NCBI RefSeq assembly: GCF_904830955.1 | Contig: NZ_LR882970.1 | DNA: 64,000 nucleotides | Origin: Planktothrix tepida | GTDB lineage: Bacteria > Cyanobacteriota > Cyanobacteriia > Cyanobacteriales > Microcoleaceae | Direction: 5' to 3' (one strand) | Part shown: in pieces, positions 7,592 to 52,991 of the stretch | How positions within the stretch are numbered: the stretch's first letter is position 1 | Layout: each line of letters opens with the position of its first letter | Notes under the pieces: generated by a model | What the model was told of the DNA's origin: nothing | Seen by the model: the letters and a program-made list of their open reading frames with translations, nothing else | Database searches by the model: none | Made by a program: the position numbers and the translations under genes

Positions 7592-8830
7592 CAAAGTTCT
7601 ACGGACTGAGAAAATTTGCATTTTATCCAGTGTTATAATACAATTCGGTAAGCCAAGTTTTGTGGCGTAGAGGCGGGTTCGTCCAGATCTAGGCTACAAA
7701 CCGACAATATTGCTAAACCCACCTGGATTCAGCTAGGGTTGTCAGAATCAAAAAATGCAGGCTGACGCTAAAATAAACTCAATCAAAAGTGTTCATTGAA
7801 CAAAAGCTACTGCTATCTCTCAACGCTGAGGAAGAAGTAGACCGAAGGGTTATCGACTTACGCCAAAGTCACCTTGATGGCTGACGACAGTTGTATAAAA
7901 CCCGATCCTCATTTAGAAAGGATGGGAAAACATTGGACAACTCTTTGTCAATTGATAATCAATAGATAGTCAAGAATCAAGGGTTTAGAAAGGTTGAGCT
8001 TTGAAACCCCAACCTACTTTTAGGAGTAGCGTACCTGTCCCTTGGGCGGTTGAGAAATCCAGAAACCTTAATGTTGCTGAAAGTTAGGGAAATCAGGAAG
8101 AAAGTAGCGGAGTCTCGTGTGGGAACATTCGCTTTCTTGAATAGAACTAGGGGGAAGGTTGTTCCAAGGTTAAGCCTGTAGAGAATCATCTTTGATGGGA
8201 ATACCGACTGAGAAGGATCTTAATACAGGAAAAAATTGGGTCAATATCCAAAATTATCCTAGGGTTGCAGTAGCTCAAATTCAATTCATTTGATTTGCAA
8301 TGTGGCATCTGTTTGTGCCAGTATTTGACAATAAAACTTTCTCTGGTATATGTCTTAAGACCAGAACAAAACAAACTTACCTGAAGGGCCTAGGTTTAAG
8401 TCCAGTTCAGTGAGGATTAGGGGATATTGTGTAGCTTAGACCGTGCGATCTAAGCTGTACGCTCTAAAAAACTTTTGAGAAGGCGGATACGGTGTGCTGA
8501 GTCTGTCAAGAGGGAAACCCCTGTCAAACCCAAGTATCGTTTTAGACAGAAAATGATGAAGGCTAACGGATAACAAATAACCTGCTTTCATTTCAGTTGC
8601 CCATAACGGTTTAAGGCTGACGGTTGATGGATTTTTGCGATGGGATTAGGTTAGGTATTAACTGTTATTTTTAAACAATCACTCACCTAATTTCCTCCGG
8701 CTTCCTGTCTTCAGTTTTTAGTCTTCCTAAAGGGCGACAATTCGCATTAATAGATTTACTAATCACGTCAATATTGCGAGGTACACGCAACGTAGGTGCC
8801 TTCAATATGACTCAGTTTTGAGGGAATTGA
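7592..8830 (+). promoter_or_regulatory. About 1.2 kb non-coding region immediately upstream of rne. Probably the promoter plus a long structured 5' leader of RNase E mRNA (autoregulatory 5'UTR); it could instead hold an independent sRNA.
   Basis: No credible ORF on either strand (only 62-70 aa shadow ORFs). rne 5'UTRs are long and autoregulated in cyanobacteria and enterobacteria. Confidence 0.4.
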
Positions 8831-11092
8831 ATGTCAAAACAAATTATTATCGCAGAACAACAACGCATCGCGGCGGTTTTTTCAGAAGATCAAATTCAAG
8901 AACTGGTTGTAGCGACCGGAAATCACCAAGTCAGTGATATTTATCTGGGTATCGTTGAAAATGTCCTACCAGGGATTGATGCAGCATTTGTCAATATTGG
9001 AGATCCTGAGCGCAATGGATTTATCCATGTTTCCGATTTAGGGCCATTACGATTAAAACGAACGTCTGGTTCCATCACCGAATTATTAACCCCCCAGCAA
9101 AAAGTGCTGGTACAGGTGATGAAGGAACCGACGGGAACTAAAGGCCCCCGGTTAACTGGAAATATTTCCTTACCCGGACGGTATTTAGTGTTAATGCCTT
9201 ATGGCAGGGGGGTAAATTTATCTCGGCGCATTCGTTCAGAAACAGAACGCAACCGTTTAAGGGCTTTAGCAATTTTAATTAAACCCTCTGGAATGGGGTT
9301 ATTGGTGCGGACAGAAGCCGAAGGCATGGCTGAAGATGCGATTTTAGAAGATTTAGAAAGTCTGCAAAAACAATGGGAAGTGATTCAACAAGAAGCTCAA
9401 TCTTCCCGCCCTCCGGCTTTGTTAAATCGAGATAATGACTTTATTCAACGGGTGCTGCGAGATATGTACAGCACCGAAGTTAACCGAATTGTGGTGGATA
9501 ACAGCCCGGCGGTTAAGCGGGTCAAACAACATTTGATGAATTGGAGCGTCGGAAAAGCACCTCAAGGGGTCTTAATTGATCACCACCGGGAACGAATTCC
9601 GATTTTAGAGTATTTCCGAGTTAATGCAGCCATTCGAGAAGCCTTAAGACCCAGAGTTGATTTACCATCAGGCGGTTATATTATCATTGAACCGACGGAA
9701 GCTTTAACGGTGATTGATGTTAACTCTGGCTCCTTTACCCGTTCGGCGACATCACGAGAAACCGTGTTATGGACAAATTGTGAAGCCGCCACGGAAATTG
9801 CCCGTCAATTGAGGTTACGCAATATTGCTGGGGTGATTATTGTGGACTTCATTGATATGGATTCCCGGCGAGATCAATTACAAGTCTTGGAACATTTTAA
9901 TAAAGTTCTCAAAGCCGATAAAGCCCGACCCCAAATTGCTCAATTATCGGAATTAGGGTTAGTAGAATTAACCCGTAAACGCCAAGGCCAAAATATTTAT
10001 GAGTTGTTTGGGCGAACCTGTGCCACCTGTGGCGGTTTAGGTCATACCGTTCATCTACCGGGAGAAATTGAACTCGAAATCGGAGAACCCCCCGCCGAAC
10101 GAGTTGTCCTCACCAATAATCGGATTGTTCCGCCACCAGCCAGTAGTGAATCCCCAGAACGACCTAGTTTACGCACTCCGATTTCCCCCTATGAACCCAC
10201 TTCTCGGGAAGAACCCGAAGTCGTTGAATTTGATGCGTCTAATAATTTCCAAGAGTTAGAACTGCTCAACCATCCCAGTTATCAAGATATTGGAACCAGT
10301 AACGCCCGTCGCCGCCGTCGTCGAATTCGGGATATGGATTCGTTAACGCGAGATGAAGAAACCCCCCGGACTTCCCTGCGGATGTCTCCTCCGGTTCAAT
10401 ATGGCGAGTCTCGTTCGGATATGGGGGGATTCAGTGAAGGGTTCTCCGCCCGAAGCGGATTCAGTGAACGCAGTCGTCCCACAAAATCCGAAATTATTAA
10501 ACCGCCTGTGGAACCCCCGGAAGTTGTTTCGGTGGAAATGACCCCAGAAGAGCAGGAAATGTATGCGTTGATGGGGATTTCTCCCTTGATGCTCTCCCAT
10601 CAACAGGTGAAAAACCCTCGTTCGGTGATTGTTACCGTTCGTTCCCCTGGGGAAGCCCCCGTGTCTCCCTCAACCCTCATCGATGAAGACTATGACGAAC
10701 CCGACATTCCTGGGATTTCCATAGGGGTCACAGACCGGATTATTCCTGAACGGACGATTTCTGAACGGATTATTCCTGAACGGACGATTTCTGAACGGAT
10801 TATCCCCGAACGGTCGATTTCTGAACGGATTATCCCCGAACGGTCGATTTCTGAGCGGATTATTCCCGAACGGACGATTTCTGAACGGATTATCCCCGAA
10901 CGGTCGATTTCTGAGCGGATTATTCTGGAACGAGAAACACCAGAAGTTGAAGAACCGGAACCCACCCCAGAATTTTCTATTTTGGAAACCGATAATGAGG
11001 ATTTCTCAGAAGAGTCTTCTGACTCAGACCATGAACCGGGTGAACCCATTATTCGTCGCCGTCGCCGTCGGTCTTCTGCGGTTACAGAGTAA
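8831..11092 (+). CDS. rne: Ribonuclease E (cyanobacterial type: S1 domain + catalytic domain + Arg-rich non-catalytic C-terminus)
   Basis: N-terminal S1/5'-sensor/DNase-I-like catalytic region (VDNSPAV...IIIEPTEALTVIDVNSG...ARQLRLRNIAGVIIVDFIDM). Zn-link CxxC (CATCGG). Arg-rich segments ARRRRRRIRD, and the terminal RRRRRRSSA nonapeptide that recruits PNPase in cyanobacteria. Confidence 0.9.
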   Translation: MSKQIIIAEQQRIAAVFSEDQIQELVVATGNHQVSDIYLGIVENVLPGIDAAFVNIGDPERNGFIHVSDLGPLRLKRTSGSITELLTPQQKVLVQVMKEPTGTKGPRLTGNISLPGRYLVLMPYGRGVNLSRRIRSETERNRLRALAILIKPSGMGLLVRTEAEGMAEDAILEDLESLQKQWEVIQQEAQSSRPPALLNRDNDFIQRVLRDMYSTEVNRIVVDNSPAVKRVKQHLMNWSVGKAPQGVLIDHHRERIPILEYFRVNAAIREALRPRVDLPSGGYIIIEPTEALTVIDVNSGSFTRSATSRETVLWTNCEAATEIARQLRLRNIAGVIIVDFIDMDSRRDQLQVLEHFNKVLKADKARPQIAQLSELGLVELTRKRQGQNIYELFGRTCATCGGLGHTVHLPGEIELEIGEPPAERVVLTNNRIVPPPASSESPERPSLRTPISPYEPTSREEPEVVEFDASNNFQELELLNHPSYQDIGTSNARRRRRRIRDMDSLTRDEETPRTSLRMSPPVQYGESRSDMGGFSEGFSARSGFSERSRPTKSEIIKPPVEPPEVVSVEMTPEEQEMYALMGISPLMLSHQQVKNPRSVIVTVRSPGEAPVSPSTLIDEDYDEPDIPGISIGVTDRIIPERTISERIIPERTISERIIPERSISERIIPERSISERIIPERTISERIIPERSISERIILERETPEVEEPEPTPEFSILETDNEDFSEESSDSDHEPGEPIIRRRRRRSSAVTE
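10736..10935 (+). repeat. In-frame tandem repeat inside the rne C-terminal region: 30-nt unit (cggattattcctgaacggacgatttctgaa) x ~6.5. It encodes RIIPER(T/S)ISE decapeptide repeats.
   Basis: Direct reading: units at 10736, 10766, 10796, 10826, 10856, 10886 and a partial unit at 10916; only T/S and synonymous differences between units. Confidence 0.9.
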
Positions 11093-11147
11093 GCTGTCCT
11101 TTTCCAACAAACTCAGCGTTGAAATCGCCTCTAAGGGTTAGAGGCTA

Positions 11148-11230
11148 GGGTGTGGGGGGAACAAAGTGAAGTAGAGAGTATCAATGATGTTATCCTCTCT
11201 TCCTGTGTCCCTACACCCCTCTTATTTTTG
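11148..11230 (+). terminator. Putative compound hairpin + U-tract terminator downstream of rne; possibly a bidirectional terminator shared with the convergent gene
   Basis: gggtgtgggg (11148-11157) pairs with ccctacaccc (11209-11219) with one G-U pair. An inner agagag/ctctct hairpin sits between them, followed by cttatttttg. Confidence 0.35.
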
Positions 11231-11710
11231 AACTTCGATAATTTCTGTATCTCCAATTTCTTGATCATGAACCATTAACATTTCATGACCATTTCCTGTT
11301 AAACCCACTCGAATTTCATGGCGTCCTGGTGGCAATTCGGGGAGATAATACCAATTTCCATAAATTCGGGTTACTTTTTTGCCATTAATATAAAGATGAG
11401 CGTGTCCTTCTTGATAGGAACTCATGGCTTGATTGACATTTTCAGGTGTTAATTTAAAATTCGTTAATTTTAACTCTAAATTCCATCCTTGACGGGCATC
11501 AGGATGGACAATTAAATCAACGGTTGGAATGGGTTGACCCGGAGGAATCGTCACGGTTTTATGATGACCAGAAGAGGAATGGTGCTGTTGTTCATCGGCT
11601 TGGACAGATAATAGACCCAATCCTGTAAAATGACTCAAAACCATTCCCAATAGTAGAGAAAATCCCAGCACAACGTTTTTGTCTTTTCTCAGATTAAATT
11701 GCCAGTTCAT
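11222..11710 (-). CDS. Secreted/periplasmic His-rich protein (signal peptide; QQHHSSSGHH, HAH, GHE). Putative copper-responsive protein transcribed downstream of petRP.
   Basis: N-terminal hydrophobic signal sequence; His-rich; lies directly downstream of the petR-petP pair; promoter carries the same 26-bp motif as petJ. Confidence 0.5.
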   Translation of the reverse strand: MNWQFNLRKDKNVVLGFSLLLGMVLSHFTGLGLLSVQADEQQHHSSSGHHKTVTIPPGQPIPTVDLIVHPDARQGWNLELKLTNFKLTPENVNQAMSSYQEGHAHLYINGKKVTRIYGNWYYLPELPPGRHEIRVGLTGNGHEMLMVHDQEIGDTEIIEVQK

Positions 11711-11782
11711 GAAATCAAGACCCTATATCAAGAAAGTGTTTTTCCTTTGTTCTGGTCTTGATTTCTCACCCTCATGTTATTC

Positions 11783-11808
11783 TTGTCAAAAGACAGTTTG
11801 TCAAACTT
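11783..11808. promoter_or_regulatory. Operator-like motif TTGTCAAAAGACAGtTTGTCAAACTT upstream of the His-rich protein gene. Candidate PetR (BlaI-family) binding site.
   Basis: Near-identical 26-mer (24/26) also present upstream of petJ at 13766-13791. Contains TGTC-N4-GACA and TGTCAAAC half-sites. Confidence 0.5.
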
Positions 11809-11880
11809 ATAGGAAATTCAAAAATGTTAGCTAAAAATCCTTTATCGGGTAGCTAATCACTTTTTACTATCCTCTATTTT

Positions 11881-11915
11881 CTGTTCCCTGTTCCCTGTTC
11901 CCTGTTCCCTGTTCC
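11881..11915. repeat. STRR-type heptamer tandem repeat (CTGTTCC x5; rc GGAACAG)
   Basis: Direct reading: ctgttccctgttccctgttccctgttccctgttcc. Confidence 0.9.
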
Positions 11916-11928
11916 CTCTTTCCTAAAT

Positions 11929-12774
11929 TTAAGAATAATGAAAAGGAACTGTAATCCAAGGTAAACAAACCCAGAACAGTAACATCCACATCCACCATCC
12001 CCAGGTTAAAGTATCAGAATCTTCCGCTAAAATAGCATCGATTCGCTCTCCTAAACGACTACTCCGAATCGAACAACTAAACGATAAATTGCAATAAGTT
12101 GGAGATTTAAACGGAGCTTTGGCAAGATATAATAAAGATTCTGCTAACACTAACGGATCGACTTTTTGGGTTGCATAACGGTCAGCCCGCATTTCTCTTA
12201 ATAACAGTAATTCTTGCCATAGATTCTCTGTATTGGGTAGCCAAACTGTGAAAGTTTTTAACCAACCTAAAATACAAAACCAAAAGGTATCTCGATAGTT
12301 TAAATGAGCTTGTTCATGGGCAATAACGGCTTCTAAATGGAGGTCATCTAAGGTTTCTAATAATCCTCGACTCACCACTAATTCCGGTTGCCAAAACCCA
12401 ACTTGAGCACTGTAGGGAAAATCATCTTGTAAAATTCGGGCTGTTTTTCCCATCACCACCTGTTGAGACAGACAATCAATTCGGTGTTGAGACTGACACA
12501 ATTGACTCAGTAACTGAACCCCTGTGAACAGTCCCCAAGCGACAAACCCCACAGCTAGTAAATAACTAAACCAACTCGCTTGGAGTCCTAACATTTCCCC
12601 TTTTGTCCCCATCGACAACACCGCCAACGCCGTCATCAACAATACTAACGGAGGACAAACAAATAAAAATAGAGATTTTTGCCAACGTTGATGCCAACTT
12701 CTTCCTTGAGGTAAAGGCATCACTCGTAAACCCAGCGCCACTAAGAGTGCTAATAAAATAATCATTAAGTGCAT
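11929..12774 (-). CDS. petP: BlaR1-family M56 membrane metalloprotease; PetP-like copper-sensing protease
   Basis: Multi-TM protein with HExxH (AHEQAHL) in the M56/M48 context. Start overlaps the stop of the upstream BlaI-like repressor. Adjacent to petJ. The PetR/PetP pair is known to control the cytochrome c6/plastocyanin switch in Synechocystis. Confidence 0.6.
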   Translation of the reverse strand: MHLMIILLALLVALGLRVMPLPQGRSWHQRWQKSLFLFVCPPLVLLMTALAVLSMGTKGEMLGLQASWFSYLLAVGFVAWGLFTGVQLLSQLCQSQHRIDCLSQQVVMGKTARILQDDFPYSAQVGFWQPELVVSRGLLETLDDLHLEAVIAHEQAHLNYRDTFWFCILGWLKTFTVWLPNTENLWQELLLLREMRADRYATQKVDPLVLAESLLYLAKAPFKSPTYCNLSFSCSIRSSRLGERIDAILAEDSDTLTWGWWMWMLLFWVCLPWITVPFHYS

Positions 12775-13196
12775 TATTGTTGTCCCTCCCGTTGACGACG
12801 AATGGCATCCAGACGTGAGGCAATGGCATCAATTTGTTCTAAACTTGCTGTATCCAAGCTATCGGCAAAAGAAGCCACTACATCAGGATTACCAATCGCT
12901 AAAAATCGATTTAAACGATCATAAGCCAAAATAGCCTGCGCTTGTTCACGGGTGACTAAAGATTGCCAATAAAAAGCACGTTCCTGTTTATTACAGGTTA
13001 ACCAACCTTTATCGGTTAAACGGCGTAAAACTGTTGTGACTGAAGTATAAGCTAATTCTCGATTAGGGTCAGCTAAAATTCGTTCATGAACATCTTTAAC
13101 CGTGGCAATACCCAAGTCCCAAACGATTTCTAGGATTTCCGTTTCTAATGGGCCGAGAGACAGTTGGCGAGGACGATAATCTGGCAAAGGGGCCAT
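12774..13196 (-). CDS. petR: BlaI/MecI/CopY-family winged-helix transcriptional repressor; PetR-like
   Basis: 140-aa penicillinase-repressor-family fold (LSLGPLETEILEIVWDLGIATVKDVHERI...YTSVTTVLRRLTDKGWL). Translationally coupled to the BlaR1-like gene. Next to petJ. Confidence 0.6.
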   Translation of the reverse strand: MAPLPDYRPRQLSLGPLETEILEIVWDLGIATVKDVHERILADPNRELAYTSVTTVLRRLTDKGWLTCNKQERAFYWQSLVTREQAQAILAYDRLNRFLAIGNPDVVASFADSLDTASLEQIDAIASRLDAIRRQREGQQ

Positions 13197-13367
13197 AAGG
13201 AATTAAGAGAAATACAACTAATTCGTTAGTTTAGTGGATGATTTGAACAGAAATCAAGGATTGGTGATGTTTCGACATGAAGATCTAATAAAGATACACC
13301 TCTCACCCTTTAATTGATCCAAGGGTTTGAGAGGTTTAAGGGTATTAAAATTTGGGATTAATTGATA

Positions 13368-13709
13368 TTACTTTGGCCAACCTTGATCGGCTTGAGACAA
13401 CACATAAGTCGCAACATCAGCAATTTGTTCTGGTTTTAAACGACCTTTGAAAGCTGGCATGGCATTTTTCCCGTTTGTAACTTGGGCTGTGATTGCCTCA
13501 ATACTATACATTCCATATTTTTCGAGATCTGCTTTTTGTAAGGTATATTTAGCATTGACTAGATTTTTTCCACCAGCATGACAAGATGCACAATTTGCTG
13601 AAAATACTTTACCTCCATTTGCTACATCTCCAGCCAATGCACTAGGAACAACAATTAAAACAGCCACTGCAATCATTAACAAGGCTGAGATTAACTTCTT
13701 TTTCATCAC
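13368..13709 (-). CDS. petJ: Cytochrome c6 (cytochrome c553) precursor
   Basis: Signal peptide + CxxCH haem motif (CASCHAGG) + conserved c6 C-terminal region ([13 protein letters not shown]...[10 protein letters not shown]). Confidence 0.9.
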
Positions 13710-13765
13710 TATTCTCCTCTGAGGAAATTAAATCAATCCTTCTATCGTGCAAAACAGATTTCTGG

Positions 13766-13791
13766 TTGTCAAAAGACAGGCTGTCAAACTT
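13766..13791. promoter_or_regulatory. Operator-like motif TTGTCAAAAGACAGGCTGTCAAACTT in the petJ promoter region (57-82 nt upstream of the petJ start). Candidate PetR site.
   Basis: Shared with 11783-11808. Confidence 0.5.
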
Positions 13792-13874
13792 CCAATTTAA
13801 AACCGTTTACATCTAGGCTGTGTAAGCTGCATACTACGGCACAAATAAATATTAAAAATTATTAATCAAATCGC

Positions 13875-15758
13875 TTAATCTGGAGTCGGAGAAATCTGTT
13901 TCATGACTTCAATATTAGCTGGCTTAATACTTGATTTTGCTTCTAAATCTTTAACTTGATTGGATTTTAGTTTGTCTAGCCAATTCACTAAAATCGTTTC
14001 GACATCATCAATAATCTGTTCTTTATTTAATTCTATGCGTAACTGATCTACAAACTTTTGAGTTAATTGTTTTTGTAACTGCATAGCTATAAAATCAGGG
14101 GGTTTATTTTTACCTTCCTCCAGAGATTTTTTAGGGTTTTCTGAAATAGCGATCGCAATTTTTTGGGCTACATTATTAGCAACTTGTTGGGGAAGATGAC
14201 GAACACCTGGAATTTTATTTAACCCTTTATAAATGGGGGATTTTTGGATGGATTGAGAAACTTGATAATGTACATAAGCTTCTAATTCAGGATGAATACT
14301 GGGTAAAACCTGAGTAATTGTAAGTTCAACAATCCGATTAGGAATTCCTGGGGGAACTTGTTGAGTCAGGTCTACAAAATCGAGGGCTTGATAGGAGGAA
14401 GCAGGATTACCGATTAAATTTTTAATCGCTCCTTTTTTCACAAAAGATTGAACTTGATTAACGCCTTGATTGACCAAAACTTGAATTAATTCTTGAGCAA
14501 AACTATAGATAAATTTTAATTTTAGATAATCAATAGTAGGCTGTAATCTAGGAAAATTAGCTCGATTCAAGTGATAAACGGCTGAAATAAACCGCAAGAA
14601 CAATAATTTAGGAATTAATAAAAACAAATAATACCATAATTTTAAAATAGCTTCCCTTAATGTCAACTCCGGTTGACGACGACGAAGGGCATAGATCTCC
14701 ATTAAAAATGTTAAAAAGAATAAGGTAATCCAAGGTAAATCAATCAACCAAAATCGGTTAACAAATTCACCATCTATTCCTAAATGTCGAAAATAAAATA
14801 ACTGCATTAACTCTTGCATTTCAGCTTCAAAAAATTGAAGTTCAGTTTCCCATCCATATTGTTCTAAGTTTTCAAGGCTCCAAAAAGTGTTAAACGCTTG
14901 TTTAGCGGATCGATCTGACCAAATTAACTCTGGGGCTAAAAAATTTAAGAGTTTAATTTGATATAAAAATTTTAAGGTGGGTGTCAGTCGAGTTGTAAAT
15001 TGGGGATCTCGACCATAAATATGATCAATAATTCGATATTTAATTTCCGTTAATTTCCCTAAATTAGGTTGTAATTGTAAGGGATAATTACGGTCAATCA
15101 GTTCTATGCTAATTTGACGAATTTCTTTCAATAAACTCTGAGATTTAGGGTGATTTAATCCGTTGTATTTTAAATTAACCTTTAATTCAGAAACTTTTCT
15201 TAAATAGTTTTGGCTAAGTCGATCCGGTTCAACCCCTTTAATCAGGTCATAGGTTAAACTAGGTTCATAAAAAATAATTAAAAATCGAATATTTTGATTA
15301 AAAAAAAGTAATTGCTTTTTCCAGGTTTTCTGATTAAAATAAACAGGACTCCAAAACAATTCTAAGGCTTGCTGAAAATTATTAGCCTTGACCTGATTTT
15401 GAAAACGTTTTTGAATTTCAGCTAAGGTTCCAGATGAATTAAGAACCGGAAAGGGAGGATTTTTAATGAATAGTTCTACACTGGATGTCTGAATCTGCTC
15501 TAAGGCTAGTTTAACTTGTTGAGATTCAATCCCAAATTGATTAATCGTTTTTTCAAGTTGATCAATTTGTTGTAAATATTGATTTTGAGGCGTATTTTCA
15601 GATTGTTGTTGATGTTGATCTATTTTTAAATAATATTCCCGAAATTTTATGTAGCTTAAATCAAAAATAACTAAACAGAAATTAGCAGTGACAACTAGAG
15701 CTAGAATTCGAGCCGTGAGTAGGGATAAACCACTGGATGGAGAAGATGACAATCGCAT
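13875..15758 (-). CDS. Hypothetical protein with N-terminal and central TM segments (627 aa)
   Basis: ORF with hydrophobic segments. Start is 19 nt downstream of the stop of the upstream flippase-like gene. Confidence 0.4.
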   Translation of the reverse strand: MRLSSSPSSGLSLLTARILALVVTANFCLVIFDLSYIKFREYYLKIDQHQQQSENTPQNQYLQQIDQLEKTINQFGIESQQVKLALEQIQTSSVELFIKNPPFPVLNSSGTLAEIQKRFQNQVKANNFQQALELFWSPVYFNQKTWKKQLLFFNQNIRFLIIFYEPSLTYDLIKGVEPDRLSQNYLRKVSELKVNLKYNGLNHPKSQSLLKEIRQISIELIDRNYPLQLQPNLGKLTEIKYRIIDHIYGRDPQFTTRLTPTLKFLYQIKLLNFLAPELIWSDRSAKQAFNTFWSLENLEQYGWETELQFFEAEMQELMQLFYFRHLGIDGEFVNRFWLIDLPWITLFFLTFLMEIYALRRRQPELTLREAILKLWYYLFLLIPKLLFLRFISAVYHLNRANFPRLQPTIDYLKLKFIYSFAQELIQVLVNQGVNQVQSFVKKGAIKNLIGNPASSYQALDFVDLTQQVPPGIPNRIVELTITQVLPSIHPELEAYVHYQVSQSIQKSPIYKGLNKIPGVRHLPQQVANNVAQKIAIAISENPKKSLEEGKNKPPDFIAMQLQKQLTQKFVDQLRIELNKEQIIDDVETILVNWLDKLKSNQVKDLEAKSSIKPANIEVMKQISPTPD

Positions 15759-15776
15759 TATTAGAATCGCCTAGAA

Positions 15777-16739
15777 TCAATAAAATGAACGCTGTTTTTT
15801 AATTTCATGAATTCCCAGTAATAAGGTCGCTACAATTAAAGGAAGAAGATAGTAAATTGCGCGATAAGCCAATAAAGCTCCTAAAACCTCTGCTGGATTT
15901 GCTTCTGCGGAAACCAAGGTGAGAACAACGGTTTCAAAGACACCTAAGCCCCCTGGAATACTACTAATCATACTAGCAGTCATTGCCAATAAATAGATAC
16001 TAAAACAACTGAGATAGGAGGAAGTGCTCCCTGCTGGTAATAATAAATATAAAACACCACCCGCAGCCCCCCAATCGAATAATGCAAAAGCGATTAAGGC
16101 TAAGGAAAGGCTAACAGTTGGAAAATTTAATTCCCAGTCTCCCAGTTTCAAGGGTTGATGATTGAAACTACTCCATAATAAATAAAGACTAATAGTGAGG
16201 AGAAAGATCATTCCGATGGGACGAACAGAGACAAAAGGTAAATCTAAAATACTAGGAATTTGTAAAGGGGTGATTAGAAAAACAAACCCACAAACACCAA
16301 ATAATCCCAACCAAAATGTTAAGTTAGCGAAAGCAATCACTTGAGCAATCACACCCGCAGGAACACGCCATCCTGAATAGATTCGATATCGAAGAGCACT
16401 GCCTGTTAATATGGATAATCCAATATTATTACTAATAGCATAACTAATAAATGCACCGTAGGCAATTTTGCTATAATGCAGGGGGAAACCGATATAACTA
16501 AATGCTAAAACATCATAACCTGTTGTCATTAAATAACTAATTAACATCAGGAAAATTGCACCTGATTGATGAGTTTTAGGAATATTCGATAAACTGCTTA
16601 AAACATCTTGAAGAGAATATCGTTCTAGCTTTTGACTAATGGCCCAGATGGAAAGAGCAAATAGAAGAAAGCCAAGAAGAGAAGGCCAAATCTTACGCAG
16701 TCGATTCATCTCTGAATTTAACCATGAACTGGTGGACAT
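15777..16739 (-). CDS. Polytopic membrane protein, UPF0104 / lysylphosphatidylglycerol-synthase-TM (flippase-like) family
   Basis: About 8 predicted TM helices; N-terminal pattern typical of the TIGR00374/LPG_synthase_TM family. Confidence 0.45.
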   Translation of the reverse strand: MSTSSWLNSEMNRLRKIWPSLLGFLLFALSIWAISQKLERYSLQDVLSSLSNIPKTHQSGAIFLMLISYLMTTGYDVLAFSYIGFPLHYSKIAYGAFISYAISNNIGLSILTGSALRYRIYSGWRVPAGVIAQVIAFANLTFWLGLFGVCGFVFLITPLQIPSILDLPFVSVRPIGMIFLLTISLYLLWSSFNHQPLKLGDWELNFPTVSLSLALIAFALFDWGAAGGVLYLLLPAGSTSSYLSCFSIYLLAMTASMISSIPGGLGVFETVVLTLVSAEANPAEVLGALLAYRAIYYLLPLIVATLLLGIHEIKKQRSFY

Positions 16740-16758
16740 TGATTCTTAACCTCATGCT

Positions 16759-16823
16759 GGGGACAAGGGGACAAGGGGACGGGGGGACAAGGGGACAAGG
16801 GGACGGGGGGACAAGGGGACGGG
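16759..16823. repeat. STRR-type octamer tandem repeat (GGGGACAA/GGGGACGG x8) in the 5' region of the flippase-like gene
   Basis: Direct reading. Confidence 0.9.
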
Positions 16824-17001
16824 AGAATGGGAGAGGGGGGGAGTAATAGTTAAGGGTTAATATGGCGATGCCTTTTGTAGATCAGGAGGTGAAATACCTA
16901 ATACTAACGTTTCATACAGTTCGGTTTTTGGGTTGCCATTTTTGAATGCCCTAGAGATCAATAGATAGTTTTGCTCTAGGGAGGGAATGAAAACCAAAAG
17001 A

Positions 17002-51428: not shown

Positions 51429-52991
51429 ATGAAAACATTATTGATTTATCCTGAATTTCCTCCTACTTTTTGGTCGTATGAAAAAATTCTGGAATTAGTT
51501 AATCGCAAAGTCTTATTACCTCCTTTAGGATTAATTACAGTGGCGGCAATTTTGCCTCAAACTTGGGAATTTAAACTGGTTGATCGCAATATTACCTCTG
51601 TGAGTGAAGCGGATTGGGATTGGGCAGAATTAGTCATTCTTTCAGGAATGATTGTTCAAAAATCCGATTTTATCGCTCAAATTCAAGAAGCGAAAAGACG
51701 AGGAAAATTAGTGGCTGTTGGTGGCCCCTACCCCACGTCTGTTCCCCATGAAATTGAAACCGCCGGAGCAGATTTTCTGATTTTAGATGAAGGGGAAATC
51801 ACCCTTCCGATGTTTGTTGAAGCGATTGAACGGGGGGAAACATCCGGGGTATTTCGTACCCCAGAAAAACCCAGTGTCACCTTAACGCCTATTCCCCGTT
51901 ACGACTTATTAGAATTGGATGCTTATGATTCCATGTCGGTACAGTTTTCACGGGGATGTCCGTTTCAATGTGAATTTTGTGACATTATTGTGCTTTATGG
52001 TCGCAAACCCCGCACCAAAACCCCTGAACAATTATTAAAAGAATTAGATTATCTCTATGAACTGGGATGGCGACGAGGGGTGTTCATGGTGGATGATAAT
52101 TTTATTGGCAATAAACGCAATGTCAAATTATTGTTAAAAGCCTTAAAAATTTGGCAAGCCGAACATCAATATCCCTTCCGGTTTAATACAGAAGCTTCCG
52201 TAGACTTAGCGGATGATGCTGAATTAATGGATTTGATGGTAGAGTGTAATTTTGATGCGGTATTTTTAGGCATTGAAACCCCCGATACCAGTAGCTTAGA
52301 ACTGACTAAAAAATATCAAAATAACCGCAGTCCCTTATTAGAAGCCGTTGATAAAATTATCCGGGCTGGTTTACGTCCGATGGCGGGATTTATTCTAGGG
52401 TTTGATGGCGAAAAACCCGGTGCTGGTTCTCGAATTATTGACTTTGTGGAACAAGCTGCCATTCCAACGGCTTTATTTAGTATGTTACAAGCCTTACCGA
52501 ATACGGCACTATGGACTCGTTTAGAAAAAGAAGGACGGTTAATTAATCCCAAAAAGTTTGATATTAACCAAACCACTTTAATTAACTTTATTCCCACTCG
52601 TCCCGTTGAAGAAATTGCTGAAGAATATATTGAAACCTTTTGGCAACTTTATGATCCTGAACGGTATTTAGAACGCACCTATCGCTGTTTCTTAAAGTTA
52701 GGCGCACCTAAATGTCATCCTCCGGGTAAAATACCGAGTTTTATTGATTTAAAAGCCTTAGCCACTGTGATTTGGCGACAAGGATTTAAACGCAAAACCC
52801 GTTGGAAATTTTGGCAATATTTGTTCAGTATTATCAAACATAATCCCGCCGTTTGGGATCATTATTTAACCTTATGCGCCCATAATGAGCATTTCTTAGA
52901 ATATCGGCAAATTGTCAAAACCGAAATTGAACAACAGTTAGCTGAATATAAAGCTCAAAAAGCTCAACTGCAAACTCAAGTTCCAGCTTAG
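51429..52991 (+). CDS. B12-binding radical SAM protein with DUF4070 C-terminal domain
   Basis: N-terminal cobalamin-binding domain, CxxxCxxC (RGCPFQCEFCD), class-B rSAM architecture. Confidence 0.7.
   Translation: MKTLLIYPEFPPTFWSYEKILELVNRKVLLPPLGLITVAAILPQTWEFKLVDRNITSVSEADWDWAELVILSGMIVQKSDFIAQIQEAKRRGKLVAVGGPYPTSVPHEIETAGADFLILDEGEITLPMFVEAIERGETSGVFRTPEKPSVTLTPIPRYDLLELDAYDSMSVQFSRGCPFQCEFCDIIVLYGRKPRTKTPEQLLKELDYLYELGWRRGVFMVDDNFIGNKRNVKLLLKALKIWQAEHQYPFRFNTEASVDLADDAELMDLMVECNFDAVFLGIETPDTSSLELTKKYQNNRSPLLEAVDKIIRAGLRPMAGFILGFDGEKPGAGSRIIDFVEQAAIPTALFSMLQALPNTALWTRLEKEGRLINPKKFDINQTTLINFIPTRPVEEIAEEYIETFWQLYDPERYLERTYRCFLKLGAPKCHPPGKIPSFIDLKALATVIWRQGFKRKTRWKFWQYLFSIIKHNPAVWDHYLTLCAHNEHFLEYRQIVKTEIEQQLAEYKAQKAQLQTQVPA

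Follow-up and report, generated by a model that had tools for sequence, protein, structure and literature searches.

The 64-kb Planktothrix tepida window analysed here (the whole stretch of DNA, to which all position numbers refer) contains, at 11222–13875, a petJ–petR–petP copper-switch locus with an additional gene, encoding a secreted His-rich protein, at its downstream end. Four co-oriented genes had been claimed for this interval in an earlier, sequence-only reading, and all four open reading frames (ORFs) are present on the minus strand, with the regulator pair lying between petJ and the His-rich gene as that reading had it. The interval also takes in the petJ promoter, since it extends as far as the stop of the gene that lies next upstream (13875). 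The genes and the two PetR operators are as follows.

13768–13788, minus strand: PetR operator before petJ, TTTGACAGCCTGTCTTTTGAC (exact match to the petJ-type motif)
13368–13709, minus strand: petJ, cytochrome c6 precursor (NCBIfam NF045930, Cytc6PetJCyano)
12774–13196, minus strand: petR, BlaI/CopY-family winged-helix transcription factor, 140 aa (PF03965)
11929–12774, minus strand: petP, M48/M56 membrane metalloprotease, 281 aa (PF01435)
11785–11805, minus strand: PetR operator before the His-rich gene, TTTGACAAACTGTCTTTTGAC (exact motif match)
11222–11710, minus strand: gene for the secreted His-rich protein, 162 aa (ORF)

The petJ product scored 159.4 bits against the NF045930 equivalog model 'cytochrome c6 PetJ' (cut-off 135), is likewise matched by PF13442 and PF00034, and carries a signal peptide (hydrophobic N-terminus) and a CASCH haem-binding motif. 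Its length is 113 aa if read from GTG, the ATG at 13706 being the likelier start. The petR product matched PF03965 (Penicillinase_R) with 98.6 bits (cut-off 22.6) and the CopY/TcrY model TIGR02698 below threshold; petR homologues with 59–96 % identity adjoin petP and petJ in 18 clustered loci, the window included. The petP product returned 27.4 bits against PF01435 (Peptidase_M48), above the cut-off of 20.3, and 25.6 bits against PF05569 (Peptidase_M56), just under the cut-off of 31. It encodes HEQAH at residue 153, and the hydropathy profile revealed hydrophobic segments at 1–24, 32–57 and 71–90 together with a Trp-rich C-terminal segment, so the predicted topology is one of three N-terminal transmembrane (TM) segments, a cytoplasmic HEQAH domain and a Trp-rich C-terminal TM segment. 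The protein stops at residue 281 and has no extracytoplasmic sensor domain. The translational overlap of the regulator and protease genes, also claimed in the sequence-only reading, amounts to a single base, shared by the petP ATG and the petR TAA stop (TAATG, 12774–12776).

PetR and PetP were described by Garcia-Canas et al. (bioRxiv 10.1101/2020.07.31.226407 / PNAS 2021) as the Slr0240/Slr0241 copper switch of Synechocystis sp. PCC 6803, and the window pair resembles it closely: in both, a BlaI-family regulator is encoded by a gene overlapping that of a sensor-less 4-TM HEXXH protease, and the topology predicted for the window PetP agrees with the published TM helices of Slr0241 (4–21, 28–50, 65–87 and 256–278; 10.1101/2020.07.31.226407). 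The published PetR core, GAC-N5-GTC, is completely conserved and lies 75 bp before the Synechocystis petJ ATG, while petJ-type (activated) promoters carry an extended direct repeat, TTTGAC-N9-TTTGAC (10.1101/2020.07.31.226407). In the window, as in Synechocystis, the core sits within such a repeat ahead of petJ: the operator is a TTTGAC-N9-TTTGAC direct repeat enclosing GACAGCCTGTC (GAC-N5-GTC), with the core 76–79 nt upstream of the petJ start. The petJ–petR–petP assignment thus held on each of these counts (regulator family, protease type, gene overlap and PetR operator before petJ) and, judged by its sequence, the locus is a genuine cyanobacterial petJ–petRP copper switch, fitting every sequence-testable feature of the Synechocystis system. 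As such, it is a known kind of system.

The His-rich gene is what sets the locus apart. It begins 218 nt beyond petP and has an operator of its own upstream, built like the petJ box, with 92 nt between core and ATG. Exact TTTGAC-N9-TTTGAC repeats occur at two sites in the 64 kb, namely before petJ and before the His-rich gene, against an expectation of 0.01, and none of 100 shuffled sequences reached two; the bare GAC-N5-GTC core is likewise confined to these two sites in the window. For graded matches, we scored the 16 specified positions of TTTGAC-N5-GTCTTTTGAC, counting sites of at least 14/16 as high-scoring; the next best candidate in the window (52107–52127) reached 13/16 and is without the GTC core.

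The box before the His-rich gene recurs in other cyanobacteria. A homologue scan with one genome per species confirmed relatives at no fewer than 581 of 600 matching stretches, and the best 80 loci of these (at least 581), one per species and totalling 1.73 Mb, were compared on both strands. They cover Planktothrix, Trichodesmium, Okeania, Dapis, Lyngbya and Nostocales (Anabaena, Fischerella, Scytonema), as well as Pleurocapsales, Leptolyngbyaceae, Thermosynechococcaceae, Acaryochloris and Prochloron. Box scores across the 1.73 Mb were bimodal, with 20 sites at 13/16 followed by 14, 24 and 36 sites at 14/16, 15/16 and 16/16, respectively, and these 74 high-scoring sites form a second peak that is well separated from the background. 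Of these, 45 stand before the His-rich gene and 22 before petJ, and the remainder mostly precede a TPR protein gene or a DsbD_2/ferric-reductase fusion gene of the same cluster. Both sets share one consensus, AAGT[T/A]TGACAg.[c/t]TGTCTTTTGACA, and similar distances from box to start codon (median 80 nt for petJ, 88 nt for the His-rich gene). Overall, a PetR box precedes the His-rich gene or its co-directional operon in 65 of the 80 loci.

Gene order tells a similar story. petJ and/or petRP lie within 6 kb of the His-rich gene in 25/80 loci, and in some 17 species the His-rich gene is downstream of petJ in the order petJ > TPR > His-rich. The order petP < petR < [box] petJ > TPR protein > His-rich gene > membrane protein > c7 recurs among the loci (e.g. 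locus L015, 2733–7649, and L049, 2800–8147; also L010, L031, L036, L053, L054, L059 and L072), c7 denoting a second secreted protein family considered below. Where the His-rich gene is co-operonic behind petJ, this is evidence of co-expression that is independent of how the type of box is interpreted.

That the His-rich gene belongs to the PetR regulon, as the sequence-only reading proposed, is therefore supported both by its own perfect petJ-type box and by conservation of that box, or of co-transcription with petJ, in 65/80 species. PetR regulation is well supported computationally, and we consider it likely, with high confidence, that PetR controls the gene; the separate operator supports its being an independent PetR-controlled unit. 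Granted PetR control, induction of the gene at low copper is very likely by analogy with Synechocystis. Expression at low copper, as predicted here on the model of petJ, suggests a role in scavenging copper and not in detoxifying it.

The encoded protein has 11 His in 162 aa and no Cys, and the His-rich stretches quoted in the sequence-only reading (QQHHSSSGHH, HAH and GHE) are all found in it, HAH as part of EGHAH. The N-terminus is basic, then hydrophobic, and ends in a cleavage-like site (VQA|DE). The polypeptide divides into a signal peptide (residues ~1–39), a His-rich linker (~40–50; DEQQHHSSSGHH) and a beta-sandwich (50–162), with the further motifs EGHAH and NGHE. An AlphaFold2 model was prepared and conservation was counted over 121 single-domain family sequences. 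Residues 1–49 are disordered in the model, while residues 50–162 form a nine-strand beta-sandwich with a predicted local distance difference test score (pLDDT) of 92–98. D71, W76, H103, H105, R115, Y117, W120 and H142 are invariant across the 121 sequences, and H50 (110/121), E79 (115/121), E101 (113/121) and E143 (101/121) are nearly so. Cys is absent from the domain in all 121 (0/121) and Met is not conserved, while the linker contains a median of four His and the majority consensus places A-H just before it, at the probable signal-peptide cleavage region. As E101, H103 and H105 alternate along one strand, they lie on the same face. Taken together, the conserved residues suggest that the protein probably binds a metal at this His/Asp site. 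Copper as the physiological metal is a more tentative proposal, to which the invariant His/Asp set, rare fusions of family members to CopC and cupredoxin domains, and the neighbouring genes point.

These neighbours were examined across the compared loci. In 20 of them, a gene downstream encodes a ~430-aa fusion of DsbD_2 (PF13386, 160 bits) and Ferric_reduct (PF01794), the latter being a ferric-reductase-like/MsrQ-like haem-b domain; the fusion protein has the invariant motifs GSFGHCxGMCGP and GLIPCGFLY. In L010, a second box lies directly before this gene, and in L071 a box is found ahead of the fusion/c7 pair. In a further arrangement, the neighbour is a cytochrome b561 (PF01292; 10 loci), which in L011, L012, L014, L017, L028, L042, L050 and L070 runs divergently to the His-rich gene, the spacer between the two containing the PetR box; these divergent pairs come from Dapis, Okeania, Trichodesmium and relatives. 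That transmembrane electron carriers of two unrelated kinds occupy this position suggests an electron donor as the working partner of the secreted protein. The c7 family (~190 aa, secreted) was found in 15 loci, always downstream of the DsbD_2/ferric-reductase fusion (e.g. L049, 7575–8147; L079, 7515–8099). It returned no match in Pfam or NCBIfam, but has an invariant His beside the predicted signal-peptide cleavage site as well as H-x-E-P and C-x-C motifs, features that suggest a second protein for handling metal. The TPR neighbour matches TPR_CcmH_CycH faintly. As a separate observation, loci of the Dapis/Okeania/Trichodesmium group encode a DUF4177-like small membrane protein that is convergent with, and downstream of, the His-rich gene.

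The reading that we favour, with moderate confidence, is that the petJ–petRP copper switch of the window has a fourth gene under its own PetR operator, and that this gene encodes a secreted protein, activated at low copper, that captures Cu(II) and hands it on. Starting from the gene identities, the two operators and the conservation and synteny observed across species, we infer that the gene is induced at low copper, that its product binds a metal, that this metal is copper and that it is passed to a reductase or transporter, along the following lines. When copper is scarce, the membrane protease PetP would be inactive and PetR would accumulate, by analogy with Synechocystis. PetR would then bind the TTTGAC-N9-TTTGAC boxes near the −35 of petJ and of the His-rich gene, activating both; once copper returns, PetP would degrade PetR and both genes would fall silent. 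The His-rich gene product would be exported by its Sec-type signal peptide to the periplasm or thylakoid lumen, where scarce Cu(II) could be bound at His103/His105/His142/Asp71, with His50 and Glu101 as further candidate ligands and the flexible His-rich tail serving as a capture arm. In many other cyanobacteria, the Cu(II) might be handed to the DsbD_2/ferric-reductase fusion or the neighbouring cytochrome b561, which would reduce it to Cu(I) and pass this across the membrane. A broader version of this reading is doubtful, though worth stating: that in most cyanobacteria the PetR regulon exceeds the four Synechocystis genes and includes a complete, hitherto unrecognised reductive low-copper acquisition pathway, with the His-triad protein as Cu(II) receptor, the DsbD_2/ferric-reductase fusion or b561 as cupric reductase and Cu(I) conduit, c7 and the TPR protein. 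If true, the pathway would be a bacterial counterpart of the reductive copper uptake known from algae and yeast, and would share its regulation with the swap from plastocyanin to cytochrome c6.

Several results weigh against the copper-capture reading. No recognisable box was found in 15 of the 80 loci. A sigma-70 promoter scan revealed no consensus promoter and no strong −10 after either box in the window; the lack of a strong −10 is expected for activator-dependent promoters, though it is no proof of one. The convergence of H50, H142 and D71 on the E101/H103/H105 face is an assumption, drawn from strand positions. A His/Asp/Glu ligand set with no Cys or conserved Met suits Zn(II), Ni(II) and Fe(II) equally. 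Finally, the DsbD_2/ferric-reductase fusion, c7 and petE were searched for and none lies within the 64-kb window; since neither the fusion nor c7 is there, the hand-off partner is putative for this genome.

Three other explanations were weighed. The most serious, although unlikely, is that PetR activates the gene but the product is not used for copper acquisition, acting instead as a redox partner or assembly factor of cytochrome c6, in iron or haem supply via the ferric reductase, or as a copper-independent replacement for a cuproprotein. Its weight comes from a ligand chemistry that is not specific to copper and from the Pfam names of the neighbours, which speak of cytochrome c biogenesis and ferric reduction: PF13386 is a thiol-transfer membrane domain of the cytochrome c biogenesis type and PF01794 is named for ferric reduction. 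The weak CcmH/CycH-like similarity of the TPR neighbour and the co-operonic position of the His-rich gene with petJ in many species fit the same idea. However, the gene stands under a box of its own, in an operon without petJ, both in the window and in ~45 species, and the fused relatives bear CopC and cupredoxin domains rather than haem-handling ones. Moreover, the HCxGMCGP and PCGFLY motifs of the membrane partner, with their Cys, Met and His residues, suit the handling of Cu(I), a soft metal. To our knowledge, Synechocystis matures its cytochrome c6 by the general system without such genes, which also counts against a role of this kind.

It is very unlikely that PetR represses the His-rich gene, as it does petE, with the product buffering or chaperoning copper when the metal is replete or in excess. 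The box does hold an inverted repeat, GACA-N3-TGTC, that petE-type repressor sites likewise have as their core (10.1101/2020.07.31.226407), and its placement relative to the −35/−10 is provisional. Against this, the second TTTGAC is present, as published for petJ-type promoters (10.1101/2020.07.31.226407), the boxes of the His-rich genes match the 22 petJ boxes in consensus and spacing, ~17 species have the gene in a co-directional cluster behind petJ, and the excess-copper genes of Synechocystis are under CopRS, not PetR. Least credible of all is that the 21-mer common to both promoters is a promoter-like element of a generic kind, made up of two TTGACA-like hexamers (TTGACA being the sigma-70 −35 consensus), or a chance similarity, with the His-rich gene an unrelated neighbour: with one mismatch allowed, 17/100 shuffles do reach at least two matches in the window, but exact matches number two against 0.01 expected, the high-scoring sites in the 1.73 Mb from 80 species are nearly confined to petJ, the His-rich gene and the operon partners of the latter, and PetR binding to motif-bearing promoters has been shown in Synechocystis by electrophoretic mobility shift assay (EMSA; 10.1101/2020.07.31.226407). 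Both repression and a generic box become unlikely given that the two sets of boxes (petJ and His-rich) are identical, that the gene occurs in petJ operons and that the motif is specific on a genome-wide scale.

The published Synechocystis PetR regulon consists of petE, petJ, slr0601 and slr0602, with in vitro PetR binding (EMSA) reported for the petJ, petE and slr0601 promoters (10.1101/2020.07.31.226407). The window resembles it in having a small extra set of unknown-function targets with a petJ-type box, but the extra targets differ: Slr0601 has two TM helices and Slr0602 is a coiled coil, whereas the window target is a secreted His-triad beta-sandwich. The window differs further in that petJ, petRP and the extra target are contiguous, and in that petE is not part of it; a plastocyanin search (C-x-P-H...G-M motif) and a search for a third GAC-N5-GTC both returned nothing within the 64 kb. 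The supplements of the PetRP paper (10.1101/2020.07.31.226407) hold no Planktothrix entries. Elsewhere, a petR synteny study highlighted petP, comB and petJ only, a 2026 review lists petE and petJ as the only PetR targets, and a 2025 review of cyanobacterial copper handling gives CtaA and cross-talk with other metal transporters as the only low-copper-induced uptake. A search of the literature on DUF4399, PetR regulon extensions and cyanobacterial low-copper uptake found no description of the family. We consider the His-rich gene a strong candidate, on sequence grounds, for a widely conserved and undescribed member of the PetR regulon that is expressed under copper scarcity.

The supply of copper under scarcity is poorly understood in cyanobacteria. 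Here, a PetR activation box stands before the gene for a secreted protein with a putative metal site in dozens of species, from Nostocales to Thermosynechococcaceae, and this gene often lies between petJ and a putative metal reductase/transporter. This makes the protein a concrete candidate, open to testing, for the part of the copper-sparing response that scavenges the metal. It also places a large domain family (~2,000 representatives at 50 % identity), so far uncharacterised and without a Pfam-level description, in a regulatory setting.

Among database proteins, a 'hypothetical protein' of Planktothrix mougeotii comes closest to the His-rich protein (95 % identity), in keeping with a Planktothrix-like Oscillatoriales genome, and the family of cyanobacterial 'hypothetical proteins' to which the His-rich protein belongs returned 224 database matches. 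An exhaustive profile search extended this to 2,069 representatives at 50 % identity (E value at most 1e-3), 1,595 of them with E values of 1e-10 or lower. Many members have two copies of the domain, and some eight to ten, with His/Asp/Glu-rich linkers in between, and at least one comes from a Pseudomonadota metagenome-assembled genome. Fusions to other domains are rare: CopC (in P0262, above the Pfam cut-off), Cupredoxin_1 (two proteins), YtkA and YHYH. The CopC and cupredoxin fusions offer a thin but directional link between the family and copper.

Neither the window protein nor any of the 121 members reached the threshold of a Pfam or NCBIfam model. Weaker matches, below threshold, among the 121 were to DUF2846 (107), to the third and fourth domains of TcaA (57) and to DUF4399 (29), which would indicate a PEGA-like sandwich only. 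Membership of DUF4399 (PF14347, threshold 28 bits), a label that UniRef gives to a few cyanobacterial family members, was considered and rejected, the window protein having no match and 0/121 passing; distant multi-copy relatives do pass (best E value 3e-42). As DUF4399 has no assigned function, membership would explain nothing. A profile search of PDB sequences found no related solved structure. The match to a cobaltochelatase involved only the low-complexity His/Glu linker and was rejected as compositional. A fold search returned nothing beyond generic fibronectin type III/immunoglobulin (FN3/Ig) similarity.

The nearest functional analogues (YcnI/YcnJ, CopC/CopD, CrpH and ZepA) are members of different families. 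CopC, YcnI and PCuAC were all rejected as relatives, with no hidden Markov model match and no significant fold match. CopC (PF04234), including the YobA-YebZ-YebY system of E. coli (PMC8689200, PMC11923076), is reminiscent of the window protein in being a small secreted beta-sandwich with His ligands, and the distant relative P0262 bears an N-terminal CopC domain; however, the window protein has no PF04234 match, CopC was an insignificant Foldseek match (E value 0.03, rank 37), and the CopC site is His1/His-x-x-Asp as opposed to EGHAH...NxHE. The ycnKJI system of B. subtilis (YcnI, PMC8424229; YcnI–YcnJ Cu(II) exchange, PMC12154828) is alike in concept, combining a copper-responsive regulator, an extracytoplasmic Cu(II)-binding protein and a membrane importer. 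There is no sequence or family kinship, Pfam finding no DUF1775/YcnI, CopC or CopD in the window protein; the ycnKJI regulator is a copper-sensing repressor, whereas PetRP works by proteolysis of an activator, and the membrane partner there is of the CopCD type, whereas the putative partner here is the DsbD_2/ferric-reductase fusion. ZepA (All3515) of Anabaena (PMC10957091) is also secreted, combines an Ig-like domain with a His triad that is conserved, and is induced under limitation of its metal as a proposed scavenger (PMC10957091). Kinship was rejected, since ZepA has two domains, a PEP-CTERM, an H-X2-9-H-[FY]-H motif, control by Zur and zinc as its metal, while the window protein is single-domain, has EGHAH and ends in ...IIEVQK. 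Lastly, the copper-starvation-induced cupric reductases of the CrpH/CcoG type (PMC13038864) and the eukaryotic FRO/FRE proteins (PMC3968747) would follow a like logic of reduction and then import if the neighbouring reductase acts on Cu(II) bound to the His-rich protein. The CrpH/CcoG reductases belong to the PepSY_TM and CcoG families, whereas the domain here is ferric-reductase-like/MsrQ-like and fused to DsbD_2, and no such reductase gene lies within the window.

Three further features of the non-coding parts of the locus were identified.

13298–13335, minus strand: stem-loop and U-rich tract directly 3′ of petJ (minimum free energy (MFE) fold)
11881–11917, no strand assigned: heptamer tandem array, (CTGTTCC)x5.3 on the plus strand, GGGAACA on the gene strand (Tandem Repeats Finder, 100 % matches)
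11130–11221, minus strand: long stem-loop right after the stop codon of the His-rich gene (MFE −30.8 kcal/mol, z = −2.5)

The hairpin behind petJ (−21.5 kcal/mol, z = −3.0 versus shuffles) is a probable petJ terminator; a simple terminator scan called no terminator, this hairpin included. A stem-loop with a U-rich tail in this position suggests that petJ is probably monocistronic and that petRP form a separate transcription unit. The heptamer array, which comes after the petP stop but before the PetR box of the His-rich gene, is probably a bystander, of the kind of short tandem repeat found in cyanobacteria. The stem-loop at 11130–11221 sits in the convergent spacer shared with an RNase E/G-like gene and is possibly a 3′ end or stabiliser. 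An Rfam search over 8000–17000 returned no matches.

Directly upstream of petJ, the 627-aa ORF at 13875–15758 (minus strand) has no Pfam or NCBIfam match; it occupies the part of the region with the lowest GC content (0.327 for 14001–16000), and hydrophobic stretches in its translation suggest membrane segments. The 320-aa protein encoded at 15777–16739 (minus strand) matches only the N-terminal flippase part (LPG_synthase_TM) of MprF, covering positions 2–303 of the 841-position bifunctional model, and has no synthase domain. At the other end of the locus, a 30-nt tandem repeat (10736–10932, plus strand; 6.6 copies, 92 % matches) lies inside the ORF at 8831–11092, where it encodes IIPER(T/S)ISER units in the C-terminal part of the RNase E/G-like protein. 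A homologue of this RNase E/G-like gene also adjoins the His-rich gene in several loci of the Planktothrix group.

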